In this document: in pieces, positions 2,961-63,582 of the stretch
Numbering within the stretch: position 1 is the first letter of the stretch
Layout of the letters: every line of letters begins with the position of its first letter
Notes under the pieces: model-generated
The model's database searches: none
Told to the model about the DNA's origin: nothing
The model's input: the letters and a program-made list of their open reading frames with translations, nothing else
Translations under genes and position numbers: made by a program
Assembly (NCBI GenBank): GCA_964016885.1
Contig: CAXHJY010001167.1
Span: 1-64,000, forward strand
Length of the DNA stretch: 64,000 nucleotides
Direction: 5' to 3'
Origin: Eledone cirrhosa
Lineage: Eukaryota

Positions 2961-3658
2961 TATGTATTTATATACAGAAAACACTCGGTTTAAATTATTA
3001 ATAGGGTAGGTTTTGTCCGCGTGTATTGACCTGACATTTTCATTATTTTCTTTAATATTACTGTTACAAAGCTATGTAATGAATGGAGGCCGAGGGGACA
3101 GTATCATAGCCGAGGAAAACTGTTGGACGAGAGAGAGTATGAGATTAATTCGTTTGTGGACATTATATGGAGAGTGGCACCAAATAGGAACAAACGAAAC
3201 CGGATAGAGAACGTCTTCGCTTCACTCTGGGCAAATAATGATTCAGAATGATGATTATGATGGTGACAGCGATGAAGATGATGATGATCATCATCATCGT
3301 CATCATCATCATGATCATGATCATGACGATGATGACAATGATGATCATGATGATGATGATATAACTATCATATACTCCCACTGCTTAGGACTCAACTCAA
3401 TAGATATCTTAATTGGCCACTGACATGAGCGGTACTTTTATTTCTGGATATTACATGTAAGTAATATATTATATAACTCCGCGATTAGATATTTCCTGCT
3501 GCTTGTTTAGATGATATACATGCCCTCTGATGAAAACCTAACTAGTCCTGAAAATTGGTAAATGGTGTTTATCATTTTTTCAGTTTACGCATGTTTGTAT
3601 GTCTATATACTAAAAATGTGTAAACTTATATACATATTTATTTAGTTTAGGTGTCTTC

Positions 3659-3709
<51 letters not shown>

Positions 3710-3940
3710 GAAACACACAGATACATGCGGACACACACATATATACATGAATGCATCCGCACCCAACTGTGAGTTAAGGGTGCTAACTTCACCGATGTTG
3801 CTCAATGAATGACTGGGACAGACCAATTCAATTTGAACTAGACTGAACCACTATCAGAGTTAAAAATACATTATGAAGAGAGAAGAAACATTTAGATATA
3901 ATTAGTAATAAAATGTATCATACCTAAACTGTTCCTAAAT

Positions 3941-4028
3941 TCCTCGACTACGTAGTTTCGTGGCATAAACAAAAACAATATATCAAAGATATAGAGTCCT
4001 TGCGAGGTCTGCCGACTTATCAAGAGGA
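3941..4028 (-). ncRNA. Type I hammerhead ribozyme, U3-A8 core variant (mirror copy)
   Basis: Near-exact reverse complement of 4698-4786. Confidence 0.8.
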
Positions 4029-4697
4029 TACCTCATTTTACTAGTCTCAAGAACGCGTCTACACGACGTGAGAAAGAATCCCAAAAGGCGGAGGGGGAGA
4101 TAGTCACGCGATATAACGGTCGAGAAACAGAGCTAAGCCTCTTATAACCACGAAGAAAATACCACGGAGGCGGAGGGGGTATTCATATCGAGGCCGTAGA
4201 AGAGGTAGTGAAGAAGGCGAGAAGTATGAGTAATGGAAGCTTTCCAGTTGTCCCCACACTTCAAAGATTGCTCGACCAGAGGGAGTTATTAATATTATTC
4301 AAATTGAATTGGTCTGTCCCAGTCATTCATTGAGCAACATCGGTGAAGTTAGCACCCTTAACTCACAGTTGGGTGCGGATGCATTCATGTATATATGTGT
4401 GTGTCCGCATGTATCTGTGTGTTTCTAAATATATTAATAACTCCCTCTGGTCGAGCAATCTTTGAAGTGTGGGGACAACTGGAAAGCTTCCATTACTCAT
4501 ACTTCTCGCCTTCTTCACTACCTCTTCTACGGCCTCGATATGAATACCCCCTCCGCCTCCGTGGTATTTTCTTCGTGGTTATAAGAGGCTTAGCTCTGTT
4601 TCTCGACCGTTATATCGCGTGACTATCTCCCCCTCCGCCTTTTGGGATTCTTTCTCACGTCGTGTAGACGCGTTCTTGAGACTAGTAAAATGAGGTA

Positions 4698-4786
4698 TCC
4701 TCTTGATAAGTCGGCAGACCTCGCAAGGACTCTATATCTTTGATATATTGTTTTTTGTTTATGCCACGAAACTACGTAGTCGAGGA
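4698..4786 (+). ncRNA. Type I hammerhead ribozyme, U3-A8 core variant, long stem II insert
   Basis: Stem I TCCTC/GAGGA; core TTGATAA; stem II GT(C)GGCA...TGCCAC; GAAA; palindromic stem III ACTACGTAGT; predicted GUC cleavage after 4781. Confidence 0.8.
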
Positions 4787-4858
4787 ATTTAGGAACAGTT
4801 TAGATATGATACATTTTATTACTAATTATATCTAAATGTTTCTTCTCTCTTCATAATG

Positions 4859-4920
<62 letters not shown>

Positions 4921-5987
4921 GTGTGTGTGTGAATTAGAAATGTATATGTATGTACAAAAAAATAAGATAGTAGGGAACAACTTTGGAAAATAAACCGATA
5001 AAGAGAAGCACCGCATATACTTCTCTCTGGTAACATTCTAGGTAGGTCTATCATAGCTAGGAGTACCATATGGGACCATTTAATGAATTAAGAAAGAACA
5101 GTTAGCCAACTTCCTTAGGAAGTCTTAGTTTTAACCCTTGACACCAAACCTCTTGAAATAAGCCCTGAATCTATGATACAAAACGGTTTTGCTTGAAAAT
5201 GTTCATATTTATTTTAAACCTTCCGTCTTAATTTTATATAAGAAATGTTAAGTTCCAGGCACCAGCTCAATAATAAGAAAGTTAGTTATATTACTAAACC
5301 CTCAAATTTCTTGATTATTTAAACAATTATTTGAAAAGCATAAGTAGTGTCTTTTCTTAGAAATATGGTAACGAAACGATTAAATCACCGAATCTCCACC
5401 ATATAGTTGTGAAAAAGATATTAATGTCATCAACATAATCTTTGGTTAAGTCTTATGTGCGCAAGTTTACCAGGTGTTCGTGAGTTCAATTCTCTGATAG
5501 CCTTTTCGTATATATCCTAATCTAAGCTGAAGACGCGAGTGAAATCACAGCTAATACCATCATATCGCGGGAAAATCTAATTTCGTGGTCTGAATAGAGG
5601 ATTCAGTTCAAATTTGTGAGACCATTACGGAATACTAGAGGCCCCTGAATACGACCGGAATGTATAGCCATCAAGATGTTGTTGCTACAATAACCAAGAT
5701 ATGAACATAATGGGAGATATTATTTTGCGTTCATTTTGCCCTGCTTACACAGGTTGGATTAAGCCATGGCTTATCTAGGTTTTATGGGCATTAAGCGGCT
5801 GACAAAACAAGACAACCCTCCCATCTGAAAAACTGAAGCAACGTGGAAATGAAGTGCTTAGCTCAAGGAAACAACACGTTACCCGGTCCGGGAACCCTTG
5901 ACCTTATGATATGAACACAGAAGTAGACAACATGCCTTCACTTATAACTACAATATATGTTTCAATTCTATATTTCCTATTTTGCAG

Positions 5988-6051
5988 ATTCATTCACTCG
6001 AACCGTTGATTGAATTGGTTATTCAAGGTTATCTCGTCCCTCTCATTAATG
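5988..6051 (+). CDS. LBP/BPI-family lipid-binding protein, third-last exon (IHSLEPLIELVIQGYLVPLIN-)
   Basis: tttgcag acceptor and gtaagt donor; 64 bp, phase 0 to 1; splices in frame to the next exon; typical BPI C-terminal motif 'lvPliN'. Confidence 0.88.
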
Positions 6052-6643: not shown

Positions 6644-6720
6644 AATATGGAGCGAAAGGAATTCCTCTTGTGATACCGAAAAAGGTTAGCTTCAGAGACA
6701 CAGAACTCACCATAATGGAG
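6644..6720 (+). CDS. LBP/BPI-family protein, penultimate exon (EYGAKGIPLVIPKKVSFRDTELTIME)
   Basis: ttttcacag acceptor and gtaaaa donor; 77 bp, phase 1 to 0; KGIPL matches the BPI/LBP 'kGfPLP' motif. Confidence 0.88.
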
Positions 6721-7857: not shown

Positions 7858-7902
7858 AATGCTGCTGTAATAGGGACTGACTTGACAATTCATGAATTTT
7901 AA
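7858..7902 (+). CDS. LBP/BPI-family protein, last coding exon (NAAVIGTDLTIHEF*)
   Basis: ttttccag acceptor; IGTD terminal strand motif; TAA stop; AATAAA at 8005 and 8105. Confidence 0.85.
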   Translation, partial: NAAVIGTDLTIHEF

Positions 7903-52309: not shown

Positions 52310-54106
52310 ATGGATGCCATTTCAACCTCGCACACTGTCGTGAGTGCCACGTCCACTAAGAAAAGTGGTGGAGGGAAGGTAGGAGTACAAAGCTTGCAGC
52401 CTTCCCCCATCGCATTATCGAAAAACGTTGAAAATATTTAAACCAGGAAACCAGATCCGGTAAATAATACCAGCACCAACAAGAACAATGACAATAAGAC
52501 CACAACCAACAACTGCAACAATAGCAACACCAAGGAAAACATGAACAATATTACCAACAGTGACAACAACAACAGCAACAAAAAAGACAACAACACCAAA
52601 ACAACGTTCGCACAGACTGTAAAAAAAAACGAACTATACACGCCAATTGACATAACAAATGCTAAACAACTACTACAAGACGCAAAACAATTGGTGACTT
52701 TTGGCGAAAACGGTGCTTTTAGCATCAATTCTCCACAGGAATTACGTAGAGAGGCTGTCCTGAAAACTGTGGTTTTCAGGACAATATCGAACGAAACAAG
52801 AAAACCAGCTCAATTATCACAAAATGAGATTGAGTTGGTTCTAAAAGATGCAATGAAGGACATAACCTTCATACAAAAATGAAAACTGTTTGGTAGCATT
52901 TCGATGCTAATGAACAAGCAGTCAACAGCACAAAAATACTCGGTATCACCCATTGTGTCCCCCCGCTTCACCTTTTTCCCCACATAGAGGGGAAAAAGGA
53001 CACAAAGAATAAAATAATGAGTATCACACCAAATATGAATATTTGGTGGATACTATGTGGAATCATTGACTTTGATGAAGACAGGATAATTTCAATAGGA
53101 AAGTCCTCCGGAGGTGTATTTGGTGGGACCAGCGTAGAAGTTCTGGTGCAAATGAGCCCAGAACGAATAGCGAATAGTCCACAACGCGTGCCTCTGGACG
53201 GGCTAACTTATATAAACATTTCAGTGGGGGCAAGGCGGCCGTCATGTTACCACTGCTTAAGCAGGGGTCACCTGAGGGCTGCCTGTCCTCAATTAACGAG
53301 TAAAAAAAAAAGGCTCTTCTGCCAACCCCGAACACAACAACACCACCACCACCACCACCACCACAACAACAACAACAACAACAACCACAACAACACGGAA
53401 AAATAACAACACAAAACACTGTTCCACCCAACCCCTCCCCACCTAAAACAAATACAAAAGCAACCACAACAAAACCCCTAAATATACCCCTCCCCAACAA
53501 CACGTATCAACGTCACCCAGTGACGACGAGGAAGAACCCTTTCAACAGGTGAAAAGGAAAAAAAAGGCACCACATTAACAAAAATGCTACAAACACACAA
53601 CCACCAGCCCAAACAGAACAAACATCACAAACAAATAAACCCACCTCTCCCAAAACATTACACATACTACAAAACGCAAACACGCACAAGAACAACAAAC
53701 AAAAACAAACACAACACAACAAAAACTCTATACATACATTAACAAGAACAATAAAACGTTGATGAAAGCAATAGAAAATAACCCTTCGGTGGAAACCGAA
53801 GAGATCACTTTCACCTACGCAGCGAACAAACCGCACCTAATGATGATTAGGGTCCCAACGGAAACCTATGTAACTTTGAAAAACAACCATCCAATGCATG
53901 GGGAGACCAACTGGACCAAACCACTTAACCACGTCCTATTGAGATGTTTCCCCACCCCTACACCAGACACCCACACCCCACCAAACACCCTAATCCCACC
54001 ACACACTGATGTCCTCACCCCACCACAGACCACCACCCCACCAAACAACCCTTCCAACACCCCCATGGAAATTGTGCAGCCTGGTCCCCAGGAGACGAAG
54101 AGGTAA
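52310..54106 (+). pseudogene. Tx1-like ORF1 (gag-like; zinc knuckle CYHCLSRGHLRAAC), broken by stops and frameshifts
   Basis: ORF pieces 52541-52882, 53017-53406 and 53759-54106; an upstream in-frame ATG at 52310 is followed by a stop near 52439. Confidence 0.75.
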
Positions 54107-54147
54107 GTAATTTCCTTTCCTCTTCCTTTTAACTCTTCAGCACCAAC

Positions 54148-57100
54148 ATGGCCAATATAAGAGTTGGATGTGTGAATTCACGCAGCCTGGGGATGTCCTG
54201 GAAACAGGGCAAACTCTTAAATGACCTCATGTCGCACAGAGTGGATGTAATGGTTATTTGCGAGTCCAAGATCAGCAGCGAGCGCCAACTGGCCCCCATC
54301 TTCGACGACTTTGAGATCTACGCATCTCTCTGTCAACCGAGGGGTGGGGTTGTCGTTCTGCTGCGAAAATACCTGGGTCTTGCTACACAGAAAGTACACC
54401 TGGACCCGAAGAATCGACTGGTAGATTTAGACGTCGGCAGTAGTGAAGGTGGCGCTTTCAGGCTGGTGGCAGCGTATGCCCCATCTGGGAGTCCGCGACC
54501 GGACTTCTTCCGACGCCTGGAGAATTTCCTGGGAACGTCTCGCTCCTTGCTTTTAGTGGGGGACTGGAATGGTATCCTGGATGCACGTTGGGACTATGTA
54601 GGGGCATGTCCCGATAAAGGGGGTTGTAACAGCCTCAAACGATTAATCGGCCGATTTGATCTGGCCGATAGATATCGACTAGATTTTCCGACTGTGCCAC
54701 TGTGGGCGTGGACTTATCGCACCGGATCATCTAGGTCGTACCTAGATAGGTTCCTAGTTAGAAATAAGGATTGGGACATATTAAGCTGTCCACGAATGTT
54801 CATGGTTGACTATTCGGATCACAAGTTGGTGACCGGAGTGGTCAACCTTGATAGAACTCATAGACAGAGACCCGGTTACTGGAAGCTAAACTTGTCTTTA
54901 CCGACAAACAAAGCTTACAGTAAGCGGATTAGCACACTAGTTAAGCAGCGGTTGACGGGGGCAATTGTCAACATCAGGTGGTGGGGCTCTCTCAAGAGAG
55001 GAATTAGAATAGAATCGATAGGTTTTAGTCAGGAATTAGTATCAGATAGGAATAGAACTGAAAGGGAATTAATAGATAGAGTAGAAGAGGCGATTAGGAG
55101 TGACAACGTGGCTGGCGTCAAAAATTGCTCTAGACCAGTTCTTTGATGCAAAGCACGAGGGCTGCGTTGTCAGGAGTAAAATACGTGCTCTGGATAACGA
55201 GGGAGCCAAAGCCGTTAGCTGGGCCCGAGTGACAGAGGCAAAAAGTGGAAACAAGTCTACGATTCGGTCTTTGAAGGACCAGGATTGATGCGTGATCCTT
55301 GAAACTGAGCGGATGAGCGCGGCCTTTCAACGGCGCTTTGCACGACTGTTCGGGAGGGGCGGCGGGCCGGGTGAGGCCATGGATTTCGGTCCATACTTCG
55401 ACGATCTGGTGCGACTCTCGGACGGGGAGGCGAAGTCCTGCGAGAGGCCGATTTCAGCCGCTGAAATAGGGGAAGCGCTGAGCCAATGCGGCAACCGCAA
55501 ATCTCCGGGTCTCGATGGTCTACCATACGAACTTTATGTAGCGATGCCGGGCTTGTTCTCCGGTCTCCTCGAGGCGGTCTACTGCAACTGGCAACAGAAC
55601 GGGAGAATTCCCAGTTCTGTGACCAAGGGCGTAGTCACGCTGGTGAGGAAGGACGAGAACAGGGGGGGGGGGGGCATAGATAACTTCAGGCCCATAACAC
55701 TGTTAAACACAGAGTTAAAGATTTTGGCCAAGGTGTTAGCGAAGAGGTTGGCGCTTGTCGTCGGGAACCTGGTGGGAGAAGCGCAGACATGCGCAATCCC
55801 GTACAGGTCCATACACGACAACCTCCACCTCATGCGATACATCGTAGAGAGGGTAGGGAACGAACTCGGCTTTGGTGGGTCCCTGATCAACTTGGATCAA
55901 TCTAAGGCGTTCGATAGAGTTGACCATCGGTACCTGGATGCGGTGCTCGCGGCGGCAGGCTTCGGACCCGTTTTCAGGGGCTGGATTGCTGCAATGCACA
56001 GAAGCAACACCTGCTCGAGGGTCAAGGTGAACGGCTACCTCTCGGAGCCGTTCCAAATCACGTGATCCATCCGACAGAGATGCCCTCTCTCCTCCCTCCT
56101 GTATGTGCTGGCTCTCGAGCCACTACTGCGGAAGCTGGAGCTGTTGCAGGGCATCCCCTTGGAACCGGGATTGCGGAAAGCGGTGTCGGCCTACGCCGAT
56201 GACGTGACAGTAATGGTGTCGTGCGCCTCGGAAATCGGGCAGATCGGCACCTTACTGGAGGAATATGAAAGGTTCACAGGAGCCAAGCCGAACCGGGACA
56301 AGTCCGTCGGTTTGCATCTCGGGACGTGGAGGTGCAAACCGCTGCCCTCCGACGGATGCTGGACGGAGGGACCGGTAAAGCTGCTCGGGTTCTGGTTCGG
56401 ACCGGGCCTCCAGGTGGAGAAAAACTGGGACGAGGTAACGGGCAAGGTGTTTGCACTTTCCCAGAAGTGGGCCGAGTGCAAACTATCCCTGAAAGGTCGA
56501 GCGGAGGTGGCGAACGCTTATATAGCGTCCGTCATTTACTACCGCTTGACCGTCGTGCCTTGCCCAGAGAAAACACTCGCCAAAATGGAGCGCGCGCTCT
56601 TCCGATTTCTTTGGAAGAAGCGGGCTCCTTTGGTGAGAAGATCCATCTGCTGTCAACACCCTTCGAACGGAGGGCTGGGGTTGCCGTGGCTGACGATGCG
56701 TAGACACGCATTAAGGCTACGGCACCTCCAGGTATTCCTTACCGGTCTGCCGGTGTGGACCCTGTTTGTGAGGCGAGCCTTTCCGAGACTCGTCTCACTC
56801 ACGGAGCTGCAATTCTGGGTCAAGCAAAGACCGAGAAAAGTGGGCGACTGGCACATTGAATGTGCCCAGGCGCTCACGGCCCTCTGGCAAGCGGATCCGG
56901 CAATCAGTGGAGACTCAACCTCAACATTCTATAGAGGGTTGGTGCGCAGTAAGTGCGACGACGCTCTCGGACAGGCTCTGGGCATGGAGGAAGATGAGCT
57001 GGCCAGTCTGTTCGGTAGGACGTTTGGCCCGGGACCGATGGACAACTTCCAAAAGTCCCTGACTTGGCAATGTTACCGAGGAGCTCTACCCGTTCGGGAC

Positions 57101-57565
57101 AAGCTCTACAGACACGGGCGCCCGGGTAGGGACCCCTCAAAGAAGATCTGTCCGAGATGCGTGCGTGACGAGGAAACCGTCGCACACGCATTCGTACACT
57201 GCCCGGGCGTTGCTGACCTGTGGGGCTATGTGGAACGACTACTGTGGTGGGTGGGACCAATCCGGTTGACCACCGAGAACATTGTCACGATCAAACCGCC
57301 TCCCCCTTTCAAAAACGAAGGAGAGGCGGTTTTCCTCTGTGTGATAGCTATGGCGAAAGAAGTTGTATGGTGGACAAGGTTGAAAGGGCTCATGTCAGAC
57401 ACCTTTCTCTCCGGCCAACAACTGGTCTTTTTTTTCAAGTACCACTTTAGAAGAAGGATCAGAATGGAGAGAGAGGTGCTCTACCCCAGCAAGTTTTATG
57501 AAAGGTGGGTGAAAGTAGCGAGAATGGCCCGAGTGAATGGGCCTTCTCTCTATATCAGCCTTTAG
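54148..57565 (+). pseudogene. Tx1-like ORF2: AP endonuclease + reverse transcriptase + C-terminal zinc finger
   Basis: APE motifs (N-S-R-S-L, E, YAP, GDWN, SYLD, SDH); RT motifs (KSPGLDG, NFRPITLLN, LDQSKAFDRVDH, YADD); CPRC..ETVAHAFVHC. Frameshift near 55120 and stops near 55286 and 56063. Confidence 0.95.
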
Positions 57566-57807
57566 GTGAGAGAGGAGAAGAATGAGAAGAGGAAGGAAGC
57601 ACCCGCTCTTTGTGCTCCTGAAGAGGAGGGTTGCACATTTTTCGGGGGTGTGTGCGACCCATGTCAACGCTCCTCCCTATTGAGGACATCGATTGTTAAA
57701 TTTAATTTGTTAAATGTTATTTTACACGTCTTTTTAAATGTATGTAAACTCCCCCCTTTGTATTTGTCCCAATCTTTGATGCCCTGGTGGCAAATTAATA
57801 GAAATTT

Positions 57808-62430: not shown

Positions 62431-62442
62431 ATAATATACTCA

Positions 62443-62480
62443 CCTTTTGAAAAGCAGAAGAACTGCGAAACCGGTAAAGG
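62443..62480 (+). ncRNA. Minimal type I hammerhead ribozyme, U3-A8 variant
   Basis: CCTT-TTGAAAA-GCAG AAGAA CTGC-GAAA-CCGG-TA^-AAGG; palindromic ACCGGT stem III. Confidence 0.82.
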
Positions 62481-62628
62481 AACCAAATAAATATATATAT
62501 TTAAAAAAAAAATAAGACTTCAGTTGCATTTTCGATTTCATCCCTTTTTCTTTATACTTCCACTCGTGTAGGACACCTCGGTTATTTTTCATTTTGTAAA
62601 AAAAACCTCACTTTCTAATATATATATG

Positions 62629-63342: not shown

Positions 63343-63490
63343 CATATATATATTAGAAAGTGAGGTTTTTTTTACAAAATGAAAAATAACCGAGGTGTCC
63401 TACACGAGTGGAAGTATAAAGAAAAAGGGATGAAATCGAAAATGCAACTGAAGTCTTATTTTTTTTAAAAATATATATATTTATTTGGTT

Positions 63491-63528
63491 CCTTTACCGG
63501 TTTCGCAGTTCTTCTGCTTTTCAAAAGG
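63491..63528 (-). ncRNA. Minimal type I hammerhead ribozyme, U3-A8 variant (mirror copy)
   Basis: Exact reverse complement of 62443-62480. Confidence 0.82.
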
Positions 63529-63582
63529 TGAGTTGAGATGGAGGGTCTGTGGTTTTTCTCACATCTGGTTGGTCTCTAAATG

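Follow-up and report, generated by a model that had tools for sequence, protein, structure and literature searches.

The stretch of DNA analysed here (the window, 64,000 nt) holds at 3701-4861 two segments, A and B, that each occur twice in inverted orientation and are interleaved in the order A-spacer-B-A'-B', and it raises the question of how such a structure is made and what it does where it lies. The layout had been described in an earlier note made from the letters alone, and was confirmed. A (3701-3837) and A' (4298-4434) are identical (137/137), B (3866-4294) and B' (approximately 4431-4861) show, apart from their edges, two differences, a single substitution and an indel of 1 nt within a stretch of T, and the spacer between A and B (3838-3865) is 28 nt long. 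The (TA)n borders of the description are also present, as (TA)20.5 at 3666-3706 and (TA)13 at 4859-4884.

Layout of the locus and its 591-nt unit

Comparison with other genomic copies, a check proposed in the earlier note, defined the unit of which the locus is built. A genome search (3.0 Gb) gave 72 matches, mostly 92-100% alike and many of them in tandem with a period of 591 nt; numbering of the unit starts at the predicted hammerhead cut. A, spacer and B are consecutive in one such unit and A'B' is the same unit with another start, the minus-strand arm (3701..4294) reading as B, spacer and A and the plus-strand arm (4298..4861) as A'B' (Table 1). Since each arm follows the tandem unit without a break, the locus has one junction. 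Two template switches had been proposed as its origin and are unnecessary. The dot-plot pattern does resemble two inversions, but tandem arrays contain both A'-B' and B-spacer-A as continuous sequence, which refutes a one-off interlocked duplication of that kind. The ends seen here are moreover found again at 75 loci, and we give such a duplication next to no credence. Formation by reverse transcription, the other half of the proposal, was borne out. The duplication is not peculiar to 3701-4861 either, since 75 of 80 two-arm loci have this layout.

Table 1. Coordinates of the insertion, its parts and the neighbouring exons in the window
Feature	Position	Strand	Remarks
Left (TA)n target microsatellite	3666..3706	.	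Arm boundary blurred by common TA letters
Arm ending at site 2	3701..4294	-	594 nt; unit 243-591 then 1-245; 3' end 3701
'Tail' between both fixed 3' ends	3701..3865	-	165 nt, unit 81-245; A plus 28-nt spacer
Type I hammerhead motif	3941..4028	-	U3-A8 core variant; predicted cut after 3946
Head-to-head junction, single	4295..4297	.	3 extra nucleotides
Arm ending at site 1	4298..4861	+	564 nt; unit 109-591 then 1-80; 3' end approximately 4861
Type I hammerhead motif	4698..4786	+	U3-A8 core, 58-nt stem II; predicted cut after 4781
Unit 1-80	4782..4861	+	Hairpin (unit 1-71) ending 9 nt before site 1
Right (TA)n target, then (AG)n	4859..4916	.	
LBP/BPI-family third-last exon	5988..6051	+	
LBP/BPI-family second-last exon	6644..6720	+	
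LBP/BPI-family last coding exon	7858..7902	+	With stop

The exact hammerhead pattern has 6,641 matches in the genome (control, 0), and the first 100 of these fall in 47 loci, which by extrapolation suggests approximately 3,000 loci of the family, with arrays reaching 9.5 units per locus. The unit has a GC content of 41% and is non-coding, with no long open frame in six-frame translation and no RT + GIY-YIG ORF. Its copies are dispersed, head-to-tail tandem units of low GC with one type I hammerhead motif each, as in retrozymes, and it was filed as a retrozyme variant because its core is U3-A8 and not C3-G8. That the locus is a young insertion of a non-coding retrozyme with a predicted hammerhead, and that it has a single junction, we hold jointly to be very probable.

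The metazoan non-LTR retrozymes of PMC7229834 and bioRxiv 10.64898/2026.07.22.740005 share with this unit, as far as the accessible text of both goes, the non-coding tandem organization with one type I hammerhead per unit, the absence of visible LTR, PBS and PPT, dispersal as dimers to multimers and co-occurrence with Penelope-like elements (PLEs). The length of 591 nt is above the 150-450 bp given in PMC7229834 and inside the 51-972 bp of bioRxiv 10.64898/2026.07.22.740005. Unlike these retrozymes, described there with a canonical ribozyme, the present unit combines a U3-A8 core with a stem II of 58 nt and is strictly targeted to (TA)n; comparison with 40 PLE loci revealed no pLTR homologous to it. 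The accessible parts of the same two papers leave unanalysed the two fixed 3' ends and the inverted arms seen here, the word 'inverted' being absent from PMC7229834.

The arms at 3701-4861 differ at 2/494 compared sites, and by this measure the insertion is very young. Target duplications are undefinable within (TA)n; a search with the right flank indicated a region without a second copy in the genome, hence no pre-insertion allele. The locus is an ordinary member of its family and probably inert.

Two GC-box-like decamers (4548 and 4630; 4548..4639, + strand) occur in the sister family too, and are a possible internal promoter. Immediately left of the element, at 3527-3560, a degraded hammerhead-like core was seen by eye. 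Circular unitigs of the unit exist, in which circles and tandem DNA look alike. The unit was also met in single low-depth unitigs of runs from several organisms, which fits cross-contamination from a very high-copy repeat, and horizontal transfer is not claimed. Seven variants from the pattern search had been taken for ribozyme-destroying deletions; five of them are point or small-indel changes and two are 20-nt loop deletions. L188 was discarded as the source of L182, as their haplotypes differ.

Two fixed ends and their likeness to Penelope-like elements

In total, 138 loci were parsed: 47 position-ordered clusters (all clusters listed in the first 54.4 Mb of C1), 60 loci picked by site 1 (from the first 61 of 67 listed site-1 ends beyond 54.4 Mb of C1), 27 found by similarity and 4 from the pattern search. 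The parse left out a sister-family arm in L071 and counted once the duplicated insertions in L077 and L248, where the whole insertion is repeated 2.55 and 2.65 kb apart, a local or an assembly duplication. Two head-to-head arms were present in 80/138 loci. In the 75 with the layout described above, one arm ends at unit 74-85 (site 1) and the other at unit 240-256 (site 2), about 80 and 245 nt after the predicted cut, respectively; the other five have one odd end, and the same site occurs twice in none (0/80). Two loci scored as single-arm also bear short site-2 stubs.

The 47-locus set has an inverted 5'-truncated copy, head to head, in 25/47 loci, and its canonical pairs are mixed without exception (22/22). 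Its single arms end at site 1 in 11 cases and at site 2 in 10, not counting the site-2 arm of L096, which has a deletion; because single arms use both sites equally, an independent choice of site would give half like pairs. The 60 site-1-picked loci have a site-2 partner arm in 32, an odd one in 1 and a site-1 partner in 0. In the genome, exact ends running into TA number 2,352 for site 1 and 1,060 for site 2, and inspection by eye of the first 100 listed ends of either kind revealed no head-to-head same-site pair within 10 kb. TA-rich sequence follows 214/216 canonical arm ends. In this family, whose young insertions run to thousands, a rule can be counted: each start site gives one arm, and both arms are of one haplotype. 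The value of the analysis lies in this family-wide rule and in the evidence for a single template, not in the locus itself.

These counts bear on whether the structure is real. An assembly artefact was considered, namely a fold-back chimera on a small unplaced contig (74.6 kb) that starts in a TA run, with a junction at 4295-4297 bridged by no listed read or contig, although the individual sampled may differ. Against it, the arms are permuted and not mirrored, differ at two places and end at the two fixed sites of the family; TA loose ends at both sites were found in the independent run X2, and the layout is common to 74 other loci on large contigs with different junctions. An artefact is accordingly very hard to believe.

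Each site lies approximately 10 nt 3' of a long hairpin (z -4.9 for site 1; z -5.5 for site 2, mononucleotide shuffles); in the tail the hairpin spans unit ~171-234 and ends approximately 11 nt before site 2. The sister family also has the site-2 hairpin (z -6.7), and its ends are at equivalent places, 74 and 239 nt after its cut. Priming of both target strands at two fixed sites of the template RNA is, in our judgement, well supported and quite probable. Separately, cDNA ends appear to cluster near unit 1-30, 165-182 and 570-591, close to both hairpins and to stem III of the ribozyme, where synthesis may pause.

Two alternative 3' ends, an inverted truncated copy and microsatellite or AT-rich targets, all found here, are also the marks of non-autonomous PLEs. 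Insertions of endonuclease-bearing PLEs (PMC8557442, PMC3846280) display, in the accessible text, the same partial tandems, inverted 5'-truncated copy, tail at one end and microsatellite targets, and non-autonomous multicopy head-to-tail derivatives are mentioned in PMC8557442. Unlike those insertions, the present family has no ORF and a tail of 165 nt against 30-40, and either arm may be the longer. Closest in biochemistry is the PAc (Poseidon) reaction of PMC11167929, in which a purified PLE protein, for which a dimer is predicted, cleaves AT-rich targets on both strands, extends both and uses the same kind of two internal start sites bounding a tail. The portions of that paper at hand do not tie the two sites to two inverted arms, and circular templates go unmentioned in them. 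How PLE tandem and inverted insertions and their one-sided tails form is called undefined in the literature available in part to us.

The genome contains 10,597 GIY-YIG candidates and several long RT + GIY-YIG frames in which a CX4CXXC motif precedes the nuclease. This motif is attributed to Neptune and Nematis in the accessible part of PMC8557442, and the autonomous PLEs of the genome would by this motif be of Neptune/Nematis type. The hammerhead of PLE family A is of the U3-A8 kind, and its stem III is palindromic. Copies of this family stop either 76 nt or 141-143 nt past the cut, and both two-arm loci examined show one end of each sort; L147, of another PLE family, likewise has two different ends. 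Apart from TG/TA repeats, the unit itself shares no homologous sequence with the 40 PLE loci compared (out of more than 10,000 GIY-YIG candidates), and a pattern search for a shorter-stemmed relative matched only the family itself. A relative in L071 was rejected as an autonomous partner, being a sister retrozyme about 71-76% alike. Loci L153-L181 represent an older sister retrozyme family with 1,990 first-look candidates, the same two ends and the two-arm layout. Within the window, two short terminal stubs of family A, at 62440-62620 (+) and 63350-63560 (-), have their tails towards each other on either side of a long TA run, and both contain a U3-A8 hammerhead; as both end at the second site of family A, they are probably two independent insertions.

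Templates of the paired arms

Haplotypes were compared in 45 two-arm loci whose arms have 150 or more sites in common. Arms differ by 0.59% within a locus versus 1.97% between loci; the within-locus difference is below the between-locus median in 44/45, and the partner is the closest arm in 35/45. Both arms at 3701-4861 have a variant present in only 2 of the other 137 loci, and rare variants occur in both arms or across tandem units. Shared haplotypes point to one template, and are compatible as well with a pair of RNAs made from a single source locus or with gene conversion at a later time.

A shared haplotype would be explained directly by a single priming followed by fold-back and self-priming of the cDNA or by antisense copying, with the tail derived from an endonuclease resolving the intermediate, as suggested for PLEs in PMC3846280 and PMC8557442. 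Mirror junctions, which such a process would leave, are slightly above chance among the 71 simple loci (4 versus 1.3 expected, P 0.04), but the other 67 are non-mirror, and neither arm is contained in the other in 23 of the 71, 3701-4861 among them. Few mirrors and non-contained arms indicate that the arms were mostly copied from the template and not from each other. Single arms ending equally at either site, and the match in kind of the two ends to the two in vitro start sites (PMC11167929), also speak against fold-back, which we regard as improbable; the non-mirror junctions argue in the same way against the self-priming and resolution accounts, as far as the accessible text of PMC8557442 and PMC3846280 sets them out. 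Arm lengths are not positively correlated (rho -0.23), which counts against joint priming of both strands on one RNA. The 71 junctions are blunt or have an overlap of 1-17 nt in 53 cases and have inserted bases in 18. The junction of L017 contains approximately 150 nt copied from the flank 0.5 kb away, placed between both arms; it had been taken for a PLE piece and proved to be a copy of that nearby flank.

The form of the template was assessed from the extent of the arms and from the arrays. Both arms pass the priming site of the other in 38/75 loci. On a single linear RNA the arms should abut, yet they do so in only 5/75 (7.9 expected by chance). In L104, eight variants against the family majority are fixed in all 7-8 copies, and arrays of up to 9.5 units with fixed rare variants fit a circular monomer, an indirect form of support, as a homogeneous source array or gene conversion would give like arrays. 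Circular templates were proposed for more-than-unit cDNA in PMC7229834 and PMC4209133, and PLE mobilisation together with circular templates for retrozymes in PMC7229834 and bioRxiv 10.64898/2026.07.22.740005, as far as their accessible text shows; in print, the copying of retrozyme circles by PLEs rests there on co-occurrence and pLTR similarity.

Two-site PLE priming could also have proceeded without a circle, the template being a linear read-through transcript of several units or a pair of RNAs from the same source array. Ribozyme cleavage is dispensable for insertion in vitro according to the accessible part of PMC11167929, and 8/9 frog retrozyme dimers did not cut in that of bioRxiv 10.64898/2026.07.22.740005. 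Some arms (L209, L217, L043, L089) stop at or beside the cut site, which fits a linear cut RNA as template, and L081 hints at two RNAs in one event. On the other hand, 5' truncation of a linear transcript could only shrink arrays, yet loci reach 7-9.5 units, and rare variants fixed in every array unit need a one-unit bottleneck somewhere. We consider the linear template rather unlikely, and a circular RNA template on balance, if narrowly, probable.

Joins between retrozyme and PLE sequence are of interest for the same events. Two of 62 screened loci, L081 (C1 ~23.442 Mb) and L089 (C1 ~36.739 Mb), have a retrozyme arm that passes into a PLE end with no TA run between them, and a contig of run X9 joins the retrozyme directly to family-A terminal sequence at window 3997. 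The joined PLE pieces are only 89-92% like the references, that of L081 being 92% like family A and unique in the genome. These joins are hints of possible chimeric insertions from two RNAs; that of L081 may be older.

Taken as a whole, a PLE RT/endonuclease likely primed both target strands on one, probably circular, RNA, a reading to which we lend fair credence. Tandem copies elsewhere would be transcribed, and paired hammerheads would cut the transcripts into pieces that are closed by ligation into circles of 591 nt. An enzyme dimer would then cut (TA)n on both strands and start a separate cDNA at each site, 1 and 2, immediately 3' of the long hairpin there. Both cDNAs would run round the template for independent distances, displacing the product of each other, and the two cDNA ends would be joined through microhomology or a few added bases, while failure of one arm would give a single-arm insertion. 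Beyond the in vitro data, this reading needs one inferred step with which the counts agree, namely that the two sites of one RNA are shared out between the target strands, one to each.

L1 twin priming, reportedly introduced by Ostertag and Kazazian in 2001, is said to have both target strands prime on one RNA and to yield a head-to-head inversion with microhomology, with a second site that is variable and two pieces that abut. Here, by comparison, neither site varies, and the stretches of template copied into the two arms overlap. More tentatively, the inverted repeats and tails of PLEs in general could be one phenomenon, a dimer acting on a single circular RNA with two hairpin-marked sites, that is, rolling-circle twin priming. 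If this is true, these retrozymes are a genome-wide record of such priming, and possibly of A-to-I edits of the template as well. In the published work searched (most subscription papers, including those on early Penelope, were outside reach), no count of end pairing and no application to retrozymes was found. The literature already has retrozymes derived from PLEs and inverted arms with a tail on one side only; in that search no published quantified rule or single-template evidence was met.

The host is probably an octopod, since the best match of an LBP/BPI paralogue in its genome is named Octopus sinensis, and its animal group is known for heavy RNA editing. Clusters of sense A>G changes fixed in all array units were noticed in L102, L104 and L023. 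The ratio of sense A>G to T>C is 14:10 among rare array-fixed variants (P 0.04), 8:2 among those with three or more copies and 19:10 among shared sites, against 21:25 among single-copy changes. The excess in fixed versus single-copy changes gave P 0.45, with no neighbour preference. A-to-I editing of the template RNA is therefore only hinted at.

Hammerhead motifs and the LBP/BPI gene

The earlier note had placed one hammerhead on each strand, with the plus-strand cut after 4781; one type I motif per strand was found, and that position holds. The plus-strand motif consists of a 5-bp stem I (4698-4702/4782-4786), the core UUGAUAA (4703-4709), stem II (4710-4767) and GAAA (4768-4771), with stem III spanned by a 10-nt palindrome. 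The canonical C3-G8 core with tertiary loop contacts is absent, the U3-A8 variant occurring instead. Rfam reported no hammerhead at the gathering score in the whole window and none at E<=10 in 3600-5000, and when 4690-4800 is folded without constraint its stability does not exceed that of shuffled sequence (z 0.47). Because of these results, the call of a ribozyme rests on the motif, the constrained fold and conservation in the sister family, which retains the core and the palindrome and has a stem II that differs in sequence yet still pairs. The minimal PLE hammerheads of PMC4209133 have, in the accessible text, the same U3-A8 core, a bulged base at the start of helix II, a palindromic helix III and a dimer-type design, and include opposite-strand motif pairs 100-700 bp apart. 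Unlike these, the present motif has a much longer helix II and a non-coding tandem carrier.

Sequestration of the ribozyme in a duplex of approximately 430 bp, also proposed before, agrees with the fold prediction. In the predicted fold of the plus-strand read-through, B:B' pairs over 428/429 nt and covers 89/90 ribozyme nucleotides, and A:A' is not formed. The ribozyme of the plus arm is thus predicted to be silent, zipped into the 430-bp duplex in host pre-mRNA. Read-through of a head-to-head pair, on whichever strand, meets the antisense arm first. With one cut site per strand the copy would not release unit-length RNA, and it is predicted to be harmless to the host pre-mRNA and unable to release the unit. 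Two-arm copies of this kind would place long dsRNA in introns.

The element had been assigned to an intron of the LBP/BPI gene. It does lie upstream of three spliced terminal exons of that family, 1.1 kb before the first acceptor and with the ribozyme motif of its plus arm sense to the gene, as claimed. No upstream LBP/BPI exon was found between 1877 and 5900, and the contig begins at window position 1; on the strength of the downstream exons an intronic position is likely. The three exons splice in frame. Against a profile built from five cephalopod-type LBP/BPI proteins, 5988-6051 and 6644-6720 together reach 14.8 bits, where the highest of 2,000 shuffles gave 6.3; adding 7858-7902 raises this to 25.2 bits, which ranks first among 302 candidates. 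Scans with one exon at a time gave nothing significant.

A regulatory dsRNA or ribozyme switch selected by the host was weighed as a role for the element. The plus arm is sense to the gene, and its only substitution, G to A at 4804, removes a splice-donor-like site at unit 22/23 that the other arm keeps. The insertion, however, is very young and typical of its family, and the same substitution is present in 4 other loci (picked with the plus arm as query), which could be chance. Selection against the splice donor at 4804 is unsupported beyond chance, and a host-selected switch is highly improbable. A contig of run X8 leaves the unit exactly at the consensus donor (window 3924, unit 22/23) into at least 255 foreign bases, a weak hint that this donor is used. 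Further along the window, a broken LINE with endonuclease and RT frames extends over approximately 52400-57600 (+).
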